Positions 23,408 through 29,573 are shown, counted from the stretch's first letter. The stretch: DNA of 64,000 nucleotides from Syntrophaceae bacterium UBA6078 (GCA_002428735.1 DIXO01000009.1:4108-68107); one strand, 5' to 3'. The notes: generated by a model from the sequence alone, not told the origin. Translations and numbers: made by a program.

Positions 23408-24097
23408 TTACAGACGGGCCCGTTTCTCAAGTCGTTCCATATCGAGTATCTGAAGGGTGTCCCCTTCGGCATTGACCAATCCTTTTTCTCGTAGCACTCT
23501 CAATTCCTTGTTGATGCTTTCCCGTGTCGTGCCAACGATGCTCGCGAGATCTCTCTGGGTAAGACGCAGGCCGATCTCGACAGGGCCTCCCTCTTCAGCC
23601 GCGCTGCCGTATTTTCTGCCTAACTCCACGAGCCTTCGGGCGAACCGCGTCGGGATATTGAGAAAATGGGCGTCCTCGAGAAGTTCATCCGTCCTGCGCA
23701 ACTGCATGGAAAGATATGAAAAGATCGCCACGATGGCCCCCTCGTTACCCGTCAGGAATGCGATAAAATCTCCTCTGTTCAGGGCCAGCAGTTCGGAAGG
23801 CTCAAGGGCGATCACATCGGCCGAGCGGGGCATACCGTCCAGAAGCGCCAGCTCGCCGAAGAAATCTCCCTTGGACAGGATCGCGGCCGCAACCTCGTCG
23901 CCCATTTCCGAGGGAAGAACAATCTTGACACTCCCCGCTTTTACTATATACAGTGTGGAACCTTCGTCACCCTTGCGGAAGAGCGCTTCCCCTTTTTTCA
24001 GGGAACGGCGTTTGAGCGAGGCGGCGAGGGATTCCCTGTCGCTGTCGCTGAGGGATTGAAAGAGGGATACCCCCTGTAAGAACTCTTCAGGTTTCAT
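23408..24097 (-). CDS. Crp/Fnr-family transcriptional regulator
   Basis: It has a cNMP-binding beta-barrel (GDEGSTLYIVKAGSVKI, GDFFGELALLDG.PRSA) and a C-terminal HTH (TQRDLASIVGTTRESINKELR). I chose the start MKPEEF at 24097. Confidence 0.85.
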   Translation of the reverse strand: MKPEEFLQGVSLFQSLSDSDRESLAASLKRRSLKKGEALFRKGDEGSTLYIVKAGSVKIVLPSEMGDEVAAAILSKGDFFGELALLDGMPRSADVIALEPSELLALNRGDFIAFLTGNEGAIVAIFSYLSMQLRRTDELLEDAHFLNIPTRFARRLVELGRKYGSAAEEGGPVEIGLRLTQRDLASIVGTTRESINKELRVLREKGLVNAEGDTLQILDMERLEKRARL

Positions 24098-24293
24098 AAT
24101 AGTATATGCACCGTAAATCCTTTGTGTCCTCACGGAGAGAAGAACATGCCGCAGGCTATCTTTCGGAGGATACCTGTGCCCGTATGCGGCACTGAAGATA
24201 AAGTATAGACAATACGCTACGGCAAGTCAAAAAATATCTTTGAAGGAGGAAATCTCCGCCGCGGGGGTTCCCTGATCGAACGGAGGGCACGAG

Positions 24294-24695
24294 ATGAACC
24301 AGTTTACGGTACGAACCGGCTCGCGGTTCGAAATGATCGACATTACGGGAGAGATACGCTCTATCCTGAAGAAAAGCGGGATGATGGAGGGGGTGTGTCA
24401 TCTGTTTGTGCCCCATACCACCACCGCCGTCACCATCAATGAAAACGCAGACCCCGATGTGCCGAAAGATATTCTGGCTGAGCTGGATAAGATCGTTCCG
24501 CTGCATGATGCCTACCGGCATATGGAGGTAAATTCCGCCGCCCATATCAAGGCATCCCTGTTCGGTTCTTCCGAGACTCTCCTCGTGGAAGGGGGGAGCC
24601 TGATTCTGGGGACCTGGCAGTCGGTCTTCTTCTGCGAATTCGACGGCCCGCGGACGAGAAAGGTCCTGGTTGAGTGTGTTCCCCATCCTCGTTGA
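24294..24695 (+). CDS. yjbQ: YjbQ-family (UPF0047) secondary thiamine-phosphate synthase-like protein
   Basis: Contains FVPHTTTAVTINENADPDV and NSAAHIKASLFGSS...GTWQ, the hallmark YjbQ strings. Confidence 0.85.
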   Translation: MNQFTVRTGSRFEMIDITGEIRSILKKSGMMEGVCHLFVPHTTTAVTINENADPDVPKDILAELDKIVPLHDAYRHMEVNSAAHIKASLFGSSETLLVEGGSLILGTWQSVFFCEFDGPRTRKVLVECVPHPR

Positions 24696-24744
24696 GAGCC
24701 CGGCACATCGTCCCGCATTCAAAAACAGGAGAAATACCAACTAT

Positions 24745-25329
24745 ATGAACATGCAGGCATCCTTTATCCTGGCATCCGCCTCGCCCCGCCGCAGGGAACT
24801 GCTTGGCGCGCTGATACCGGGTTTTCAAATAATCCCCAGTGAGGTGGACGAGGAACCGCTGGACGGAGAATCACCGGGCGATCATGTCCTGCGGCTCGCG
24901 AGAGAGAAGGCCCTGGCCGTGTCCCGGGTGTACCCGGACCGCTGGGTCCTGGGGGCGGATACGATTGTGGTCATAGACGGGGAGATGCTGGGCAAGCCCG
25001 AGACGCCCGCGGAGGCCCGGAGGATGCTCGCCAAGCTGAGCGGCCGTGAGCACATGGTTATCACGGGGTTCGCTCTTGTGAAGGGAGATGCTGTCATTGC
25101 CAATGAATGTGTCCGATCCGACGTCCTGTTCAAGGAGATATCCAAGAATGAGATGGAGTGGTACACCCAGACGGATGAGCCATACGACAAGGCAGGGGGG
25201 TACGCTGTCCAGGGGAAAGCGGCTTTTTTCATAAAGGAAATACGCGGCTCGTACACAAACGTCATCGGCCTTCCCCTGTGCGAGGTCGTATCGGCGATGG
25301 AAAAAGAGGGGGTCCTGAAACTGGCGTGA
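24745..25329 (+). CDS. maf: Maf-family nucleoside triphosphate pyrophosphatase
   Basis: Contains ILASASPRRRELL, LGADTIVV and KAGGYAVQGKAAFFIKEIRGSYTNVIGLPL. I chose the start at 24745. Confidence 0.9.
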   Translation: MNMQASFILASASPRRRELLGALIPGFQIIPSEVDEEPLDGESPGDHVLRLAREKALAVSRVYPDRWVLGADTIVVIDGEMLGKPETPAEARRMLAKLSGREHMVITGFALVKGDAVIANECVRSDVLFKEISKNEMEWYTQTDEPYDKAGGYAVQGKAAFFIKEIRGSYTNVIGLPLCEVVSAMEKEGVLKLA

Positions 25330-25458
25330 TTGAGGAGCGAACGGACAGGCTCAGGAAAACAGAACAATCAATCTGTTCCCCTCTCCTTGAAAGTCTGACT
25401 TTGAACTGGGTCGTTTTTCGGGGAAAGGCACGAAGGGTGAGGATGGAAAGGCTTAATA

Positions 25459-26898
25459 GTGAGAGATAAAAGAATCTTGTTAGTAACAGTGCCCATTATG
25501 GATGAAATAGACGGTAAGATTCAGCCGATCATGATGGACAAAACCCGGTCGAATCCCCCCACAGGAGTCTATCTGCTCGCTGGGATTTTGAAAAAGAGCC
25601 GCATTACGTTTCGATTTCTGGATTTGATTGCCGGAGGGGTCTTCGATCTGGAAAATATTGATAAAGATCTCGAGGAGATCGATATCATTGCTCTTCCCGC
25701 CAATTCACTTAATTGGCCCAGCGCATTACTCCTCATCAATCGAGCAAAACAGATTAATCCACAATCGACTATTATCCTCGGAAATATTCACGGCACCATG
25801 TTTCCTGAATATATATTGGCTCATTATCCGGTTGATTATATTCTGCGGGGAGAGGCGGAAATGTCTTTTCGGGCATTGATTGAATGCTTGTTGAAAGGGA
25901 AGGAACCGGACAATATGTCGGGGCTTTGTTTCAAGAAAAAGGGAATGATGTATATTGACCCTATTATCCCGACGCTGACCGAGGAGCAGCTGAATCAAAA
26001 TCTAATTCCTCTTTGGGATATTATCCCTGAGAACGCCTATACATCTCTTTCGATCGAGTCTTCCCGAGGCTGTAAATTCAATTGTCTCTTTTGTTCAATT
26101 CCTTACCGCAGAAATTGGCGTAAACTTTCAGCGTCGGTATTTTATGAACGGTGTCTTGAGTCCATTACGTATAGCCGAAGAACGCGATCAAATGTGCTTT
26201 CGATTATCGATGACTGTTTCACGATTGACAAAAAAAGGATTCTGGATATCGTGAGTTTGTTAAAGAACGAAAACTCCCCCCCTTCATTTACCATGGACGC
26301 CAGGGCATCCGATTTACGCGATGCCGAGTTATGTGCTGCGATTGCTCCTTATGTTAACTCAATGCTGGTTGGGGCGGAACTCGGTTATGAAGCCGGGTTA
26401 AAGAAAATAAGGAAAGGCATCCGGCTTCAAGATATTATTGATTCGGCGTCAAACCTCAATGAGATGGGAATTGCCCATCAAACGGTATTTTCATTCATTA
26501 TTGGGTTTCCTTGGGAACGGTATGATGAAGTGATGCAAACCGTTCAGTTTGCTTTTGAACTTTACGCTCGATATGGAGTAAGAATCTACTTGCAATGGCA
26601 CAATCTTATTCCTGGATCAAAAATCTGGTATTCCTTCCTGAACAATCAACAATTGTCGCTGATGGAATATGATACGATGGGATTTTTCCGCAACAGGAAG
26701 CTTATGGGATTGAGTATTGGCCGCAGTAACAATGAAATATTCAAAATATGCGACCGCGTGTTGTCTGTTATCAATCTATCCCGGATTCAGGACCGGATAG
26801 GCAATCTTAACACCCAATCGATTTCCTTTTCCGTTCCATGGCACCTTGTCGATGATTATTCCCAGTATCTGAGTCAAGAGGAACAACAAAAAACATAA
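25459..26898 (+). CDS. B12-binding-domain radical SAM protein (class B-like)
   Basis: 479 aa. The CX3CX2C motif SSRGCKFNCLFCS lies at 26071-26094 (Cys205/209/212). It is preceded by a Rossmann-like N-terminal domain of about 190 aa, the arrangement seen in B12-binding radical SAM enzymes. GTG start. AT-rich coding sequence. Confidence 0.8.
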   Translation: MRDKRILLVTVPIMDEIDGKIQPIMMDKTRSNPPTGVYLLAGILKKSRITFRFLDLIAGGVFDLENIDKDLEEIDIIALPANSLNWPSALLLINRAKQINPQSTIILGNIHGTMFPEYILAHYPVDYILRGEAEMSFRALIECLLKGKEPDNMSGLCFKKKGMMYIDPIIPTLTEEQLNQNLIPLWDIIPENAYTSLSIESSRGCKFNCLFCSIPYRRNWRKLSASVFYERCLESITYSRRTRSNVLSIIDDCFTIDKKRILDIVSLLKNENSPPSFTMDARASDLRDAELCAAIAPYVNSMLVGAELGYEAGLKKIRKGIRLQDIIDSASNLNEMGIAHQTVFSFIIGFPWERYDEVMQTVQFAFELYARYGVRIYLQWHNLIPGSKIWYSFLNNQQLSLMEYDTMGFFRNRKLMGLSIGRSNNEIFKICDRVLSVINLSRIQDRIGNLNTQSISFSVPWHLVDDYSQYLSQEEQQKT

Positions 26899-26940
26899 AA
26901 ATTTTGACAATTGATAAACTGAAAAAAGGAGGCAAGAAAA

Positions 26941-27276
26941 ATGGCAAAGATTACAGTAAATATTCCGGACAACATTATTCAACTGGGCAAAGATTTGATG
27001 AGCGATGATTCGCTCCGAGACCGGTTTGATGAAAATCCTGTTGAGGTTTTAAATGAATACGGATTCAAACTTCCGGAAGAACTGACCAGTGACAAGCTCA
27101 AAGAGTTCAAGGTAAAAGACATGATTCGCGACATGAAGAGCATGGACCGCACGGCAATGCGCGCCGCAGCAGTTGCTGAAGCGGAAATTGTTGTCGAAGC
27201 GGCAATGACGCCTTATACCTATCCCGTGACAATGGTTGTCGTTGGTGTGGCTGTAGCGACAACAGTAGGCGAATAG
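26941..27276 (+). CDS. 111-aa ORF: candidate RiPP precursor with a Nif11/NHLP-like leader and a Val/Ala/Thr-rich C-terminal core
   Basis: AGGAGG sits 8 nt upstream of the ATG, and the ORF starts 42 nt after the radical SAM stop. The leader-like stretch is DDSLRDRFDENPVEVLNEYGFKLPEEL. The C-terminus is AAAVAEAEIVVEAAMTPYTYPVTMVVVGVAVATTVGE, with no Cys. Confidence 0.55.
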   Translation: MAKITVNIPDNIIQLGKDLMSDDSLRDRFDENPVEVLNEYGFKLPEELTSDKLKEFKVKDMIRDMKSMDRTAMRAAAVAEAEIVVEAAMTPYTYPVTMVVVGVAVATTVGE

Positions 27277-27367
27277 AAATAAACGCCTTGTCAAATAATG
27301 CTGGAATTTGCTCGCTTCCATTGAGGGCTTGATCCGTTCACATGGCTTTGGTTGTTATTGAAATTAT

Positions 27368-27525
27368 GAAAAGTGGAGGGGGGTAAACATGGGACGGGGA
27401 AGGGCGCCTTCTTGATCGGGGAGATTTGCGACTCACACACCACCGCGATCGGTCTCCCCCTGTCCGAGGTGGTCAACGCGATGGAAAGGGTCGGGGGCGC
27501 TCAGACTGGCGTAAGCGGAAGATGA
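27368..27525 (+). pseudogene. relic of a maf 3' end (diverged duplicate of 25186-25329), followed by a duplicated terminator-like hairpin
   Basis: Translating 27391-27525 gives GTGKGAFLIGEICDSHTTAIGLPLSEVVNAMERVGG...*, against the intact Maf C-terminus VQGKAAFFIKEIRGSYTNVIGLPLCEVVSAMEKEG...*. The downstream GGAAAACAGAA...TCTGT.CCC hairpin is also shared (25353-25381 vs 27535-27562). Confidence 0.75.
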
Positions 27526-27713
27526 GGAAAGCCACGGAAAACAGAAAAACAAGTCTGTCCCTTTTTGTTTTATTAAACGTTGGTTCTTAAGAAGTGATAT
27601 GAATGACTTGCAGCCATTATTAAAAAAATATGAAGGCAATCGCGTCATTCGTGGCCTAATTCAGTTGGTGCCATTTGGTATAGGAGGCAATTGACGTTGT
27701 TCTCACCAAGACC

Positions 27714-28283
27714 TTGGAAAATATTCAAGAAGAAAGAGCAGACGCATTTTTTGATGAGTTGGCGGCTGGCAACATCTTTGTTGATGAGGGTCTTCTGAAG
27801 TCTGAAGATTTTTTACATGCATATTATGCAACAACCAAGTTTGCCTTAAATTCTAGAAGGCGAGAAAAAATAAGAATGTTCGCCCGTCTCTTGAAAAGTT
27901 CGCTTACTGATAATGAAATTTCAAACATCGATGAGTATGAAGATTTTCTCAAAATACTAGACGAACTAAGCTATCGCGAACTGATAGCCTTAAGAGTTTT
28001 AGACGAATTTGGATCAACTCCAAGAACCGAAGAGCAAAACGATCTCCAGTGGACAAACCAGTTTTGGGACAAATTCGAAAAACGTCTATCAAGTGAATTG
28101 GGAATACCAACTAATCAACTAACTGATTTTATGAACAGAATAGCACGAACCGGATGTTATGAAATGTTTACGGGTGGATACATGGATTATACTGGAGGAA
28201 AAGGCAAATTAACTCCCACCTACCATAGACTTAGGGGATTTGTTGAAGAAAGCGAAAAGGCCGAACACAAATGGGTCAACTAA
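27714..28283 (+). CDS. hypothetical protein, possibly the frameshifted body of a longer gene starting at ATG 27601
   Basis: 189-aa ORF with only a TTG start and no nearby RBS. A 31-aa ORF (27601-27696, MNDLQPLLKKYEGNRVIRGLIQLVPFGIGGN*) ends 18 nt upstream in another frame and reads like its N-terminus. Confidence 0.45.
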   Translation: MENIQEERADAFFDELAAGNIFVDEGLLKSEDFLHAYYATTKFALNSRRREKIRMFARLLKSSLTDNEISNIDEYEDFLKILDELSYRELIALRVLDEFGSTPRTEEQNDLQWTNQFWDKFEKRLSSELGIPTNQLTDFMNRIARTGCYEMFTGGYMDYTGGKGKLTPTYHRLRGFVEESEKAEHKWVN

Positions 28284-28340
28284 GACGCTCCTTACGTTGT
28301 GTCTGCTACCTCAAGCGTTATTTTTTGTGGAGATAAGATA

Positions 28341-28748
28341 ATGGATTCAAAACTCTGGGCTATGTTAATCGGGCTTATAGCTGGTGCCTTTGGGTATTGG
28401 TTTACGACTTTTCATATGCAACCCATCTTAAGATTTCGGAATCTTCGAAACCAAGTATTAATGGATTTCATCTACTATGCTCAGGTTATAAATGCAGAAA
28501 AATTGAATGAAGATATGAAAAAGCTATTCCGAGAACGTGTACTTGTAAACAGAAGATCATCTGCTCAGCTATTTGCCGCAATACAGGATTTGCCATGGTG
28601 GTATTCGCATTACCTAAAACATAGGGGAATTGAACCGGAGAAGGCTGCTACCCACTTGATCGGGTATTCCAATACAACCGATTACGAAGATGCTCACAAA
28701 GTAGAGGAAGCGATCAGAAGGAATCTTAGGTTGCCAAAGCAAACATAA
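28341..28748 (+). CDS. hypothetical N-terminally membrane-anchored protein
   Basis: MDSKLWAMLIGLIAGAFGYWFTTF forms a TM helix, followed by a soluble helical region. AT-rich. No family recognised. Confidence 0.5.
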   Translation: MDSKLWAMLIGLIAGAFGYWFTTFHMQPILRFRNLRNQVLMDFIYYAQVINAEKLNEDMKKLFRERVLVNRRSSAQLFAAIQDLPWWYSHYLKHRGIEPEKAATHLIGYSNTTDYEDAHKVEEAIRRNLRLPKQT

Positions 28749-28883
28749 TCATAATCCTGAAACGTGTCGTCCCCGTTTAAGCTAGGAGAACAAAATAGGT
28801 ATTACCGATAAGACGAGTTAAAACCAGCCAGAGTTTTCTCGCCAGCTCCGCCGGTTTTGTTTTTAGTCAGAAGGGGAATCATA

Positions 28884-29573
28884 ATGTCAGCAGTAGGGGA
28901 CAACATAAGAAAAATACGGGAGGAGATTGCCGAAGCGGCCCTGCGGTCGGGGAGGGAGCCTTCCGCGGTCAGGCTGATGGCCGTGACCAAGACGGTGGAT
29001 GATGCCCGGATCTTGGAGGCGATCGAGGCCGGCGTGGATATCATGGGGGAAAATTACGTCCAGGAGGCGAAACGGAAGATCGAGACGATGAATGTGGATG
29101 TGAGATGGCACATGATCGGTCATCTGCAGTCGAACAAGGCCAAGTACGCCATCAGGCTTTTTGATATGATCCACTCCATCGACCGGCTGAGCCTGGCGGA
29201 GGAGCTTGACAAACGGTCCGCCGCCGTGGGTCGGGTCACCACTGTCCTCATTGAAGTGAACGTAAGCGGCGAGGAGAGCAAAAGCGGCATCCCGGCCGAA
29301 GAGGCGCCCGCACTGGTCAGAAAAATCGCATCCCTCGACAATCTCTCGATCCGGGGCCTCATGACGATGCCTCCCTGGTTCGAAGATCCCGAAAACGCCC
29401 GACCGTACTTTGCGGCCTTGCGGAAGTTGCGAGACCGTATTGCCGATGAGGAGATTCCGGGTGTCGATCTGCGCGAACTCTCCATGGGGATGTCGGCGGA
29501 TTACCGGGTCGCCGTGGAAGAGGGCGCGACCATTGTCAGGATCGGGACCGCCATATTCGGTCCCCGGGCATAG
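28884..29573 (+). CDS. yggS: YggS-family pyridoxal-phosphate homeostasis protein
   Basis: Contains LMAVTKT (PLP Lys), GENYVQEA, WHMIGHLQSNK and LSMGMSADY. I chose the start at 28884. Confidence 0.88.
   Translation: MSAVGDNIRKIREEIAEAALRSGREPSAVRLMAVTKTVDDARILEAIEAGVDIMGENYVQEAKRKIETMNVDVRWHMIGHLQSNKAKYAIRLFDMIHSIDRLSLAEELDKRSAAVGRVTTVLIEVNVSGEESKSGIPAEEAPALVRKIASLDNLSIRGLMTMPPWFEDPENARPYFAALRKLRDRIADEEIPGVDLRELSMGMSADYRVAVEEGATIVRIGTAIFGPRA

Follow-up and report, generated by a model that had tools for sequence, protein, structure and literature searches.

Why should a bacterial chromosome carry the end of a housekeeping gene twice? This question is raised by a 64-kb stretch of DNA from Syntrophaceae bacterium UBA6078 (GCA_002428735.1 DIXO01000009.1:4108-68107), here called the window, in which the intact gene maf is followed by a cassette of a radical S-adenosylmethionine (SAM) gene and a small putative precursor gene and then, 2.2 kb from the first copy and in the same orientation, by a second, degenerate maf 3' end (the relic) upstream of the core gene yggS. 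The window is itself a metagenome-assembled contig, its organism being one of the uncultured Syntrophales, represented by metagenome assemblies only; all coordinates are window-based unless a locus is named. A sequence-only reading of this DNA had proposed that the cassette came in by recombination at the maf 3' end, supplied a replacement end of its own and displaced the other copy. We compared the window with ~25 maf-yggS loci (L-numbers below) from genomes whose Maf is 62-91% identical to that of the window. On the strength of these sequence comparisons, the second maf 3' end is best read as a scar in a hotspot without mobile-element genes, left when recombination was anchored by homology on one side and illegitimate on the other.

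Origin of the second maf 3' end

Pairwise alignment of 25186-25381 with 27368-27562 confirmed that the 3' end of maf is duplicated. The two copies reach a local alignment score of 75, against 17.3 ± 2.2 and a maximum of 27 in 500 shuffles, and their identity of ~70% (MAFFT) agrees with the difference of roughly 30 percent given in the sequence-only reading. The Maf C-terminus matches 27379-27495 with 59% identity over 39 aa (tblastn), and local alignment found no comparable third copy elsewhere in the 64-kb window. It also holds that only the radical SAM gene and the precursor open reading frame (ORF) lie between the copies (25459-26898 and 26941-27276). The distal copy is real but was drawn too long: it had been started at 27368, and homology is secure only from ~27394, the leftmost ~27 nt being ~50% identical. 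Two groups of maf sequences served for comparison, the resident group or W-type (window, L001, L015, L020) and the A-type of a different Syntrophales subclade (L027, L024, L025, L022, L026). The left-hand part of the locus contains the following features.

24745-25329, + strand: intact maf, W-type along its whole length (Pfam Maf, E=7.5e-60)
25186-25381, + strand: repeat copy 1, the last ~145 nt of maf and ~50 nt downstream, with a hairpin at 25354-25379 and no T-run after it
25459-26898, + strand: B12-binding radical SAM gene, the first of two cargo genes (Pfam Radical_SAM and B12-binding)
26941-27276, + strand: 111-aa ORF, putative NHLP-like precursor of a ribosomally synthesized and post-translationally modified peptide (RiPP), family matches below threshold
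27277-27293, + strand: last 17 nt common to the window and L015, right edge of their colinearity
27294-27366, no strand: spacer of ~71 nt without a source match
27367-27514, + strand: maf 3' relic, an unconstrained A-type pseudogene fragment, homology secure from 27394, original stop TAA at 27512-27514
27536-27574, + strand: hairpin copy 2 (27536-27561) and T-run (27562-27574)

Over 117 in-frame nt the relic is 79-81% identical to A-type maf and 68-71% identical to W-type maf, and the window's own resident gene is, with 68%, the least relic-like of the W-type sequences. At third codon positions the identity is 0.69-0.77 to A-type against 0.44-0.51 to W-type, and the nearest neighbour of the relic was A-type in 4990 of 5000 bootstraps (99.8%). 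Furthermore, the relic shares with A-type genes a 23-nt exact match, ATCGGTCTCCCCCTGTCCGAGGT (common to L024, L027, L025 and L022), the Ser codon (Ser-for-Cys) of PLSEVV and the His of GSHT. By these affinities the relic is foreign, taken from the maf of another lineage and not copied from the resident gene. The intact maf, which is 88-91% identical to L001, L015 and L020, carries 16 W against 5 A informative sites over 25174-25343 and is W-type through its stop codon; its 3' end and the remainder of the gene are equally near to the cassette-free L001 and L020. There is thus no sign of a maf 3' end supplied by the cassette. As to which copy is native, the proximal one is the W-type resident and the distal relic is A-type, so that two parts of the sequence-only reading are not supported for the window: a maf end replaced by the incoming cassette is not shown, and the relic is not the old end of the resident gene. 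An element-supplied proximal end with a native distal copy is absent from the window and is found in L050, a locus that is also free of an integrase.

The relic is a decaying fragment that evolves without constraint. Its identity to intact maf at second codon positions is 0.74-0.77, compared with 0.87-0.95 between intact maf genes, and 6 of 19 invariant Maf residues are changed. An upstream indel had been thought to break the frame; instead the frame is intact from 27394 onward, and only the last six codons are shifted, by a single surplus G within the run 27493-27497. Without this G the relic reads TGKGAFLIGEICDSHTTAIGLPLSEVVNAMERVGALRLA, with the end ...GLPLSEVVNAMERVGALRLA, and closes at the original stop TAA. 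Per 36 nt, from rightmost to leftmost, its identity to A-type maf is 0.83, 0.89, 0.72 and 0.50. In a test for chimerism the leftward drop was significant only when the doubtful leftmost 27 nt were counted. The relic could be composite, that is, an older relic partly converted by a later crossover, or its leftmost part could be non-homologous.

Both copies had also been said to end in a terminator hairpin. The motif GGAAAACAGAA-N7-TCTGTYCC does occur after both, at 25354-25379 and 27536-27561, and nowhere else in the 64 kb (0.04 matches expected by chance), and it is an imperfect palindrome in both places. The T-run follows the relic hairpin only, the hairpin is weak (5-bp core stem, about -10 to -15 kcal/mol in context) and it was not called by a simple terminator scan. 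Rfam and simple terminator and promoter scans of the locus added nothing. In the A-type loci L024 and L050 the intact maf is followed by a matching hairpin and T-run, and in L026 the left arm has decayed. An integron attC array or a Xer/dif module was considered and rejected; the hairpin is confined to two places in the 64 kb and tied to the region downstream of maf, there is no IntI and no Rfam match, and the cargo of other loci lacks the hairpin.

A mosaic yggS and the right-hand block

The foreign low-GC DNA extends beyond the relic. GC content is ~0.40 from 25400 to ~28850, against ~0.55 in the flanks, and the sole interruption of this tract is the GC-rich relic. To the right of the relic the following features were identified.

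27599-28283, + strand: frameshifted copy (ORF4) of a widespread ~220-aa protein, frame break near 27683-27694, no Pfam family above threshold
28299-28748, + strand: small ORF (ORF5) of 135-149 aa with a hydrophobic N-terminus, no family assignment
28818-28958, + strand: yggS leader and first ~75 nt of yggS, A-type, attributed to the imported tract
28884-29573, + strand: yggS (pyridoxal phosphate-binding, Ala_racemase_N fold), the right-hand core gene (Pfam E=3.7e-25)
28958-29005, + strand: interval of the recombination breakpoint inside yggS, informative sites 16 A : 4 W before it and 8 A : 55 W after it (Fisher p = 4e-8)

The start of yggS sides with the relic. Over 28847-28966 it is 83-93% identical to L021 and reaches 78-85% with L024 and L027, versus 70-82% with L001 and L020 and 50-75% with L015, and of the informative sites in the leader and 5' end (28832-28958) 16 are A and 4 are W. 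From 29005 the informative sites switch from A-type to W-type, which places a breakpoint inside yggS. An A-type tract would span the relic and the two ORFs and reach into yggS. Mosaic 5' ends of this flanking gene are seen in the window and probably also in L015. No yggS 5' relics and no further maf fragments were found inside the islands.

The ~65-nt yggS leader at 28818-28883 (AAAACCAGCCAGAGTTTTCTCGCCAGCTCCGCCGGTTTTGTTTTTAGTCAGAAGG...) is conserved in L021, L020, L003, L007 and L024 independently of the cargo; the promoter of yggS may lie in it, or a terminator that serves the cargo upstream. When its frame is repaired, ORF4 encodes 227 aa that are 60-82% identical to full-length homologs with 95-97% coverage. 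Neither Pfam nor NCBIfam assigns its family, a weak sub-threshold Abi_alpha match aside, and its homologs come from very different taxa. They lie in unrelated contexts with a DNA identity of up to 82% (L017), which suggests recent promiscuous transfer.

A relative with the cassette and without the relic

The closest comparison is provided by L015, which is 88% identical to the window and has the order maf-hairpin-radical SAM-precursor-yggS. It is colinear with the window over 23760-27293 (yjbQ, maf, hairpin, radical SAM gene, precursor gene and 17 nt) and over 28891-29557 (yggS), and it is without 27294-28890, that is, the spacer, the relic, its hairpin and T-run and the two low-GC ORFs. The same cassette thus sits at the same left junction with no relic. 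Since L015 has the cassette and is without 27294-28890, the cassette exists without a bracket and the relic is physically tied to the right-hand block. All rightward neighbours of the relic (hairpin and T-run, the two ORFs, the A-type leader and 5' end of yggS) are either missing from L015 or differ there. In L015 the leader of yggS and its first ~20 codons (L015:3537-3660, compared with window 28818-28960) are unlike those of all other relatives (36-63% identity), and yggS carries an N-terminal extension. This suggests a separate recombination joint at the right edge of the radical SAM cassette in the L015 lineage.

In L015 the radical SAM gene is 88% and the 111-aa ORF 94% identical to those of the window. 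A pair of a radical SAM gene (57%) and a ~109-aa ORF (46-48%) recurs in unrelated contexts in L047-L049, and on this recurrence the cassette is a genuine portable two-gene unit. The pairs lie at L047:1673-3497, L048:5001-6829 and L049:2005-3833, beside P-II, RecQ or ABC-F genes and with no maf nearby; no maf relics were found beside them. The radical SAM protein is of class B (B12-binding), and its similarity to named families, including RiPP C-methyltransferases, is sub-threshold only. The 111-aa ORF scores 26 bits with NCBIfam TIGR04351, where the cutoff is 65, and has further NHLP-clan matches below cutoff. By these similarities, the identity of the cassette as a radical SAM/precursor pair is plausible. 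Between the window and L015 its third-position identity is 0.74-0.76, against 0.81-0.83 for flanking genes; this similar or larger divergence fits vertical co-inheritance of the cassette in both.

The spacer (27294-27366) matched maf, L015 and the cassette-downstream DNA of L048 and L049 no better than shuffles in 6 of 7 comparisons. The seventh, with L047, gave a marginal score of 21 against 14.3 ± 2.2 that was reached by 1.7% of shuffles. BLAST found no match for the spacer in any locus of the comparison set. Its predicted fold is moderately stable (-15.5 kcal/mol with flanks).

The maf-yggS gap as a proposed site of gene exchange

Across the ~25 loci the same core genes bracket at least nine cargo arrangements as well as empty gaps. 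In this comparison of synteny maf is followed directly by yggS in some relatives and by varied cargo in others; yggS comes right after maf, or almost so, in L008, L035, L053, L054, L052 and L007. The states of the gap are listed below.

L053, L054, L008, L035: maf and yggS directly adjacent, 13-25 nt
L052, L007, L021: short gap of 124-242 nt
L001, L027: SRA-HNH endonuclease
L003: 299-aa ORF
L020: 198-aa membrane-anchored ORF
L032: ~1.2 kb of small ORFs
L050 (SRA-HNH), L024 (150-aa ORF), L022 (AbiGi), L026: gene X, maf 3' relic and other cargo
L015: radical SAM gene and precursor

The cargo has a GC content of 0.35-0.44 across loci, compared with ~0.55 in the flanks. Four other loci (L050, L024, L026 and L022) have maf 3' relics of their own, and these relics stand there without the radical SAM cassette. 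Thus the duplication belongs to the hotspot, where it recurs, and not to this cassette in particular. Cassette-free relatives with two maf-like segments, which the sequence-only reading had named as a refuting finding, do exist; their segments bracket a different gene at a different junction. The junctions lie at the stop codon (L022, L023, L025), inside the hairpin (L001), after the T-run (L024, L026, L050) or after the hairpin stem (window), and the left ends of the relics differ as well, at ~27394 in the window versus the PLSEVV codons in the X-type loci. Scans with Pfam, PADLOC and NCBIfam, run on every cargo ORF and on ten neighbouring ORFs (15.0-38.6 kb), found no integrase or transposase in the cargo or within ±10 kb. 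Recombination at the maf 3' end without an integrase, as proposed before, is supported. Variable junctions, the lack of an exact core and the lack of a recombinase gene fit recombination anchored in the flanking genes. Taken together as a pattern of sequence, the gap between maf and yggS is a hypervariable, integrase-free spot flanked by two core genes.

One exchange can be followed closely. L050 corresponds to an L027-like locus (maf-spacer-HNH-yggS) with an additional 452 nt, comprising the hairpin and a 118-aa gene X, and a 53-nt duplication of the maf 3' end. The displaced maf end (L050:4348-4856, compared with L027:3139-3447) retains the TAA stop, the original spacer and the SRA-HNH gene. 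The pair L050 and L027 is a clean natural case of 3'-end displacement. Hence the mechanism of 3'-end replacement and displacement put forward in the sequence-only reading is clean in this sister locus, while it is not shown for the window. In addition, L050 shares maf-hairpin-X-relic with L024 and relic-HNH-yggS with L027. Because it matches L024 up to the relic and differs from it past the relic, the relic also acts as a recombination junction.

Several observations concern the contents and surroundings of the loci. The defence-like cargo includes the SRA-domain HNH endonuclease (type IV restriction-like) at L001:6542-7231, L027:3340-4026 and L050:5003-5692; L022:2101-2430 encodes an AbiGi-family protein, and other loci have small membrane-anchored ORFs. 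A relative with 79% Maf identity, L002, has no yggS within 7 kb of maf, and L002:7597-14582 holds VIT1, a Hint-domain protein, a Sel1/PG-binding protein, an IS1595-family transposase and a FIST protein; this region is either a larger insertion or a rearrangement. No integrase was found in the yggS-less downstream regions of L002 and L030, the latter consisting of housekeeping genes. In the window, the locus has housekeeping neighbours on both sides, upstream pilins, a prepilin peptidase, a Crp-family regulator, yjbQ and maf, and downstream yggS, an HD-domain/OB-fold protein, fdhD, selB, a YceG-family protein gene and a penicillin-binding protein gene.

Order of events

We give an even chance to a history in which a single A-type block was imported after the cassette, with its right end homologous in yggS and its left end illegitimate. 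An L015-like ancestor would have carried maf-hairpin-radical SAM-precursor-yggS and taken up a ~1.7-kb block from an A-type donor of the other subclade, made up of a truncated maf 3' end with its hairpin and T-run, both low-GC ORFs, and yggS from the leader through its first ~75 nt. The right end of the block would have been joined by a homologous crossover inside yggS (28958-29005) and the left end by a non-homologous joint 17 nt past the precursor gene (27293/27294), and the truncated maf piece would have decayed afterwards without constraint. In the clade at large, cargo would be swapped between lineages by recombination anchored in maf and yggS; clean double crossovers would replace it tracelessly, and a one-sided event would leave a truncated piece of a flanking gene. 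That the whole block came in one event, later than the cassette, is what we infer.

This history has the marks of homology-facilitated recombination. At the homologous end the flanking gene yggS is mosaic (p = 4e-8). At the other end the junction is non-homologous, as colinearity stops at 27293 and the next 71 nt match nothing except the marginal L047. The acquired DNA comes from a related, distinct lineage, the relic, its hairpin context and the yggS 5' end being A-type. With the A-type relic and the mosaic yggS, homology-facilitated acquisition from a relative, which the sequence-only reading had entertained, is the best explanation.

Several points weigh against an import of the block after the cassette. 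The 71 nt left of the relic match neither maf nor other sequence, so that the donor maf would have been truncated already or filler would have been added at the joint. The donor arrangement maf-hairpin-ORF4-ORF5-yggS was not found: ORF4 homologs lie in unrelated contexts, and on the four contigs with close homologs (78-82% identity; L016-L019) none is beside maf, none has a maf relic and none has a nearby ORF5 homolog. The only clearly resolved event of the hotspot, L050 versus L027, is left-anchored in maf and its new cargo adjoins maf, an analogy that would favour the reversed order. Moreover, the decay of the relic at codon positions 1 and 2 combined is about 17%, over 117 nt only, and thus at least equals the neutral divergence of ~15% per lineage since the split of the window and L015 that corresponds to their intergenic identity of 70%. 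This makes the relic uncomfortably old for an event after that split. We tried to order the two cargo arrivals by divergence, for which a relic of 117 nt is too short to decide. Finally, the leftward fall in identity hints at a composite history of the relic, and the atypical yggS 5' end of L015 may mean that L015 is not the ancestral state.

The reversed order, in which the ORF4/ORF5 block came first and the cassette later, is the mechanism of the sequence-only reading; it is a serious possibility, though a doubtful one. A W-type genome would have gained the block by a double crossover in maf and yggS, which would make its maf 3' end, hairpin and yggS 5' end A-type, and this first step is of a common type at hotspots (PMC5635113). 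L015-like DNA (maf-hairpin-radical SAM-precursor and ~90 nt) would then have been anchored on the left in or upstream of maf and joined illegitimately on the right ~120-145 nt before the maf stop, thereby restoring a W-type maf and displacing the A-type end. Precisely this geometry is documented in L050 versus L027, where the displaced 53-nt end is contiguous with the old downstream DNA. The reversed order also accounts for a relic contiguous with A-type hairpin, island and yggS 5' end, and it treats the 71-nt spacer as the downstream flank of the cassette itself. The spacer is unlike the cassette-downstream DNA of L015, L048 and L049, however, and only marginally like that of L047 (21 versus 14.3 ± 2.2; 1.7%). 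One extra event is required, and the cassette has diverged from L015 at least as far as the flanking core genes have, with no sign of a more recent transfer. Within maf there is no trace of a W/A switch, which is expected under this model and gives it no support.

It is improbable, and still worth stating, that the maf 3' segments bracketing the cargo are working parts, homology-flanked cassettes whose relic and hairpin dock the next cargo in an integrase-free, self-propagating system. Ordinary homologous recombination could then insert or delete bracketed cargo at the maf 3' end of any relative, and L050, with maf-hairpin-X-relic as in L024 and relic-HNH-yggS as in L027, fits this view. A stronger variant would have an unlinked recombinase recognise the hairpin. 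Site-specific integration of small elements, with the maf 3' end or hairpin as attachment site and a recombinase encoded elsewhere (Xer-like or integron-like), is given only a small chance; the target would be duplicated at every integration, and tandem accretion would yield the order maf-cargo-relic-cargo. Direct repeats of a gene 3' end around cargo are its classic signature, relics are present in at least five loci and the imperfect-palindrome hairpin stands at both copies. On the other hand, the cargo and its ±10 kb surroundings hold no integrase, and the longest exact run common to the two copies is 11 nt, the length expected by chance at ~70% identity over 195 nt. Junctions and relic left ends differ between loci, L015 has the cassette without a second copy, and a mosaic tract inside yggS would be unexpected under integration at maf.

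That the resident maf 3' end was duplicated long ago and then decayed, the A-type likeness being due to chance or compositional convergence, is very unlikely. The hairpin motif in both copies, 2.2 kb apart and in the same orientation, would suit it. The extra copy is not closest to the resident maf (68% to its own gene versus 79-81% to A-type), and its A-type synonymous states, the Ser-for-Cys codon, the 23-nt match and 99.8% of bootstraps speak against this origin, as does the A-type 5' end of the adjacent yggS. Least credible of all is an assembly chimera of co-occurring W-type and A-type strains, which the metagenomic source of the contig and an A-type tract bounded by strain-shared sequences might suggest: the whole locus recurs in an independent Logan contig (L057, 7 samples) with 100% identity over 10.4 kb, so that the arrangement is no assembly artefact, the relic is truncated and frameshifted with mutated invariant residues and thus no intact gene of another strain, and the left junction lies in non-shared sequence.

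Relation to known systems

Integrase-mediated islands and prophages insert at the 3' ends of tRNA, tmRNA and protein genes. The locus resembles them in that direct repeats of the target 3' end bracket the insert and the gene is kept intact. In contrast, it has no integrase, no exact core and no fixed junction, and the gene-proximal copy is of resident and not of element type.

Closer counterparts are found among loci that exchange DNA by recombination alone. In Vibrio cholerae, the effector-immunity clusters of the type VI secretion system form arrays by sequential displacement (Kirchberger et al. 2017, PMC5361080), and C-terminal displacement occurs at Rhs and contact-dependent inhibition (CDI) loci, according to the Rhs work as cited there. 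As at the maf-yggS gap, a conserved gene provides the homologous anchor, the other end is illegitimate, the former 3' end and earlier cargo are shifted downstream, orphan 3' fragments remain and no integrase is involved; traceless double homologous replacement also occurs at those loci. The present anchor is a housekeeping gene, maf or yggS, in place of a polymorphic toxin gene, the cargo has no functional relation to this anchor, and the orphan fragment of the window comes from another lineage than the resident gene. Homology-facilitated illegitimate recombination was shown by experiment in Acinetobacter, Pseudomonas stutzeri, Streptococcus pneumoniae and E. coli, in studies cited in PMC5361080 as references 41, 42 and 47 (see also PMC3240628). 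The window shares with it one homologous anchor (the yggS breakpoint), one non-homologous joint (27293/27294) and foreign DNA beside the anchor, and differs in that the process is here inferred from sequence alone.

Among hotspots of horizontal gene transfer many lack mobile-element genes, with recombination seen in the core genes at their flanks (Oliveira et al. 2017, PMC5635113). Core defence hotspots (PMC10250203) are a further counterpart. The maf-yggS gap is alike in that the same core pair brackets differing low-GC accessory genes in close relatives, with no integrase and with recombination tracts in a flanking gene, and in that several of its cargo genes are defence-like (SRA-HNH, AbiGi and the weak Abi_alpha-like match). 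In contrast to those hotspots it is very small, with 0-3.5 kb and one to four genes, it belongs to an uncultured anaerobe lineage, and it retains visible 3'-end scars that are usually not described in such surveys.

The locus thus offers a base-pair view of how an accessory spot between housekeeping genes turns over in uncultured syntrophs without mobile-element machinery: cargo is replaced homologously, and now and then an illegitimate join on one side leaves a dated scar. It corrects the notion of a maf end carried in by the radical SAM/precursor cassette itself, marks the maf-yggS gap as a place to seek small defence-like and RiPP-like cargo in this clade, and provides relics of a kind that can be used for ordering acquisition events. 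Hotspots free of mobile elements and orphan 3' ends from one-sided recombination are both of known kinds, and no new mechanism is revealed. The instructive twist is that the orphan fragment in the window is, by its A-type affinity, xenologous.

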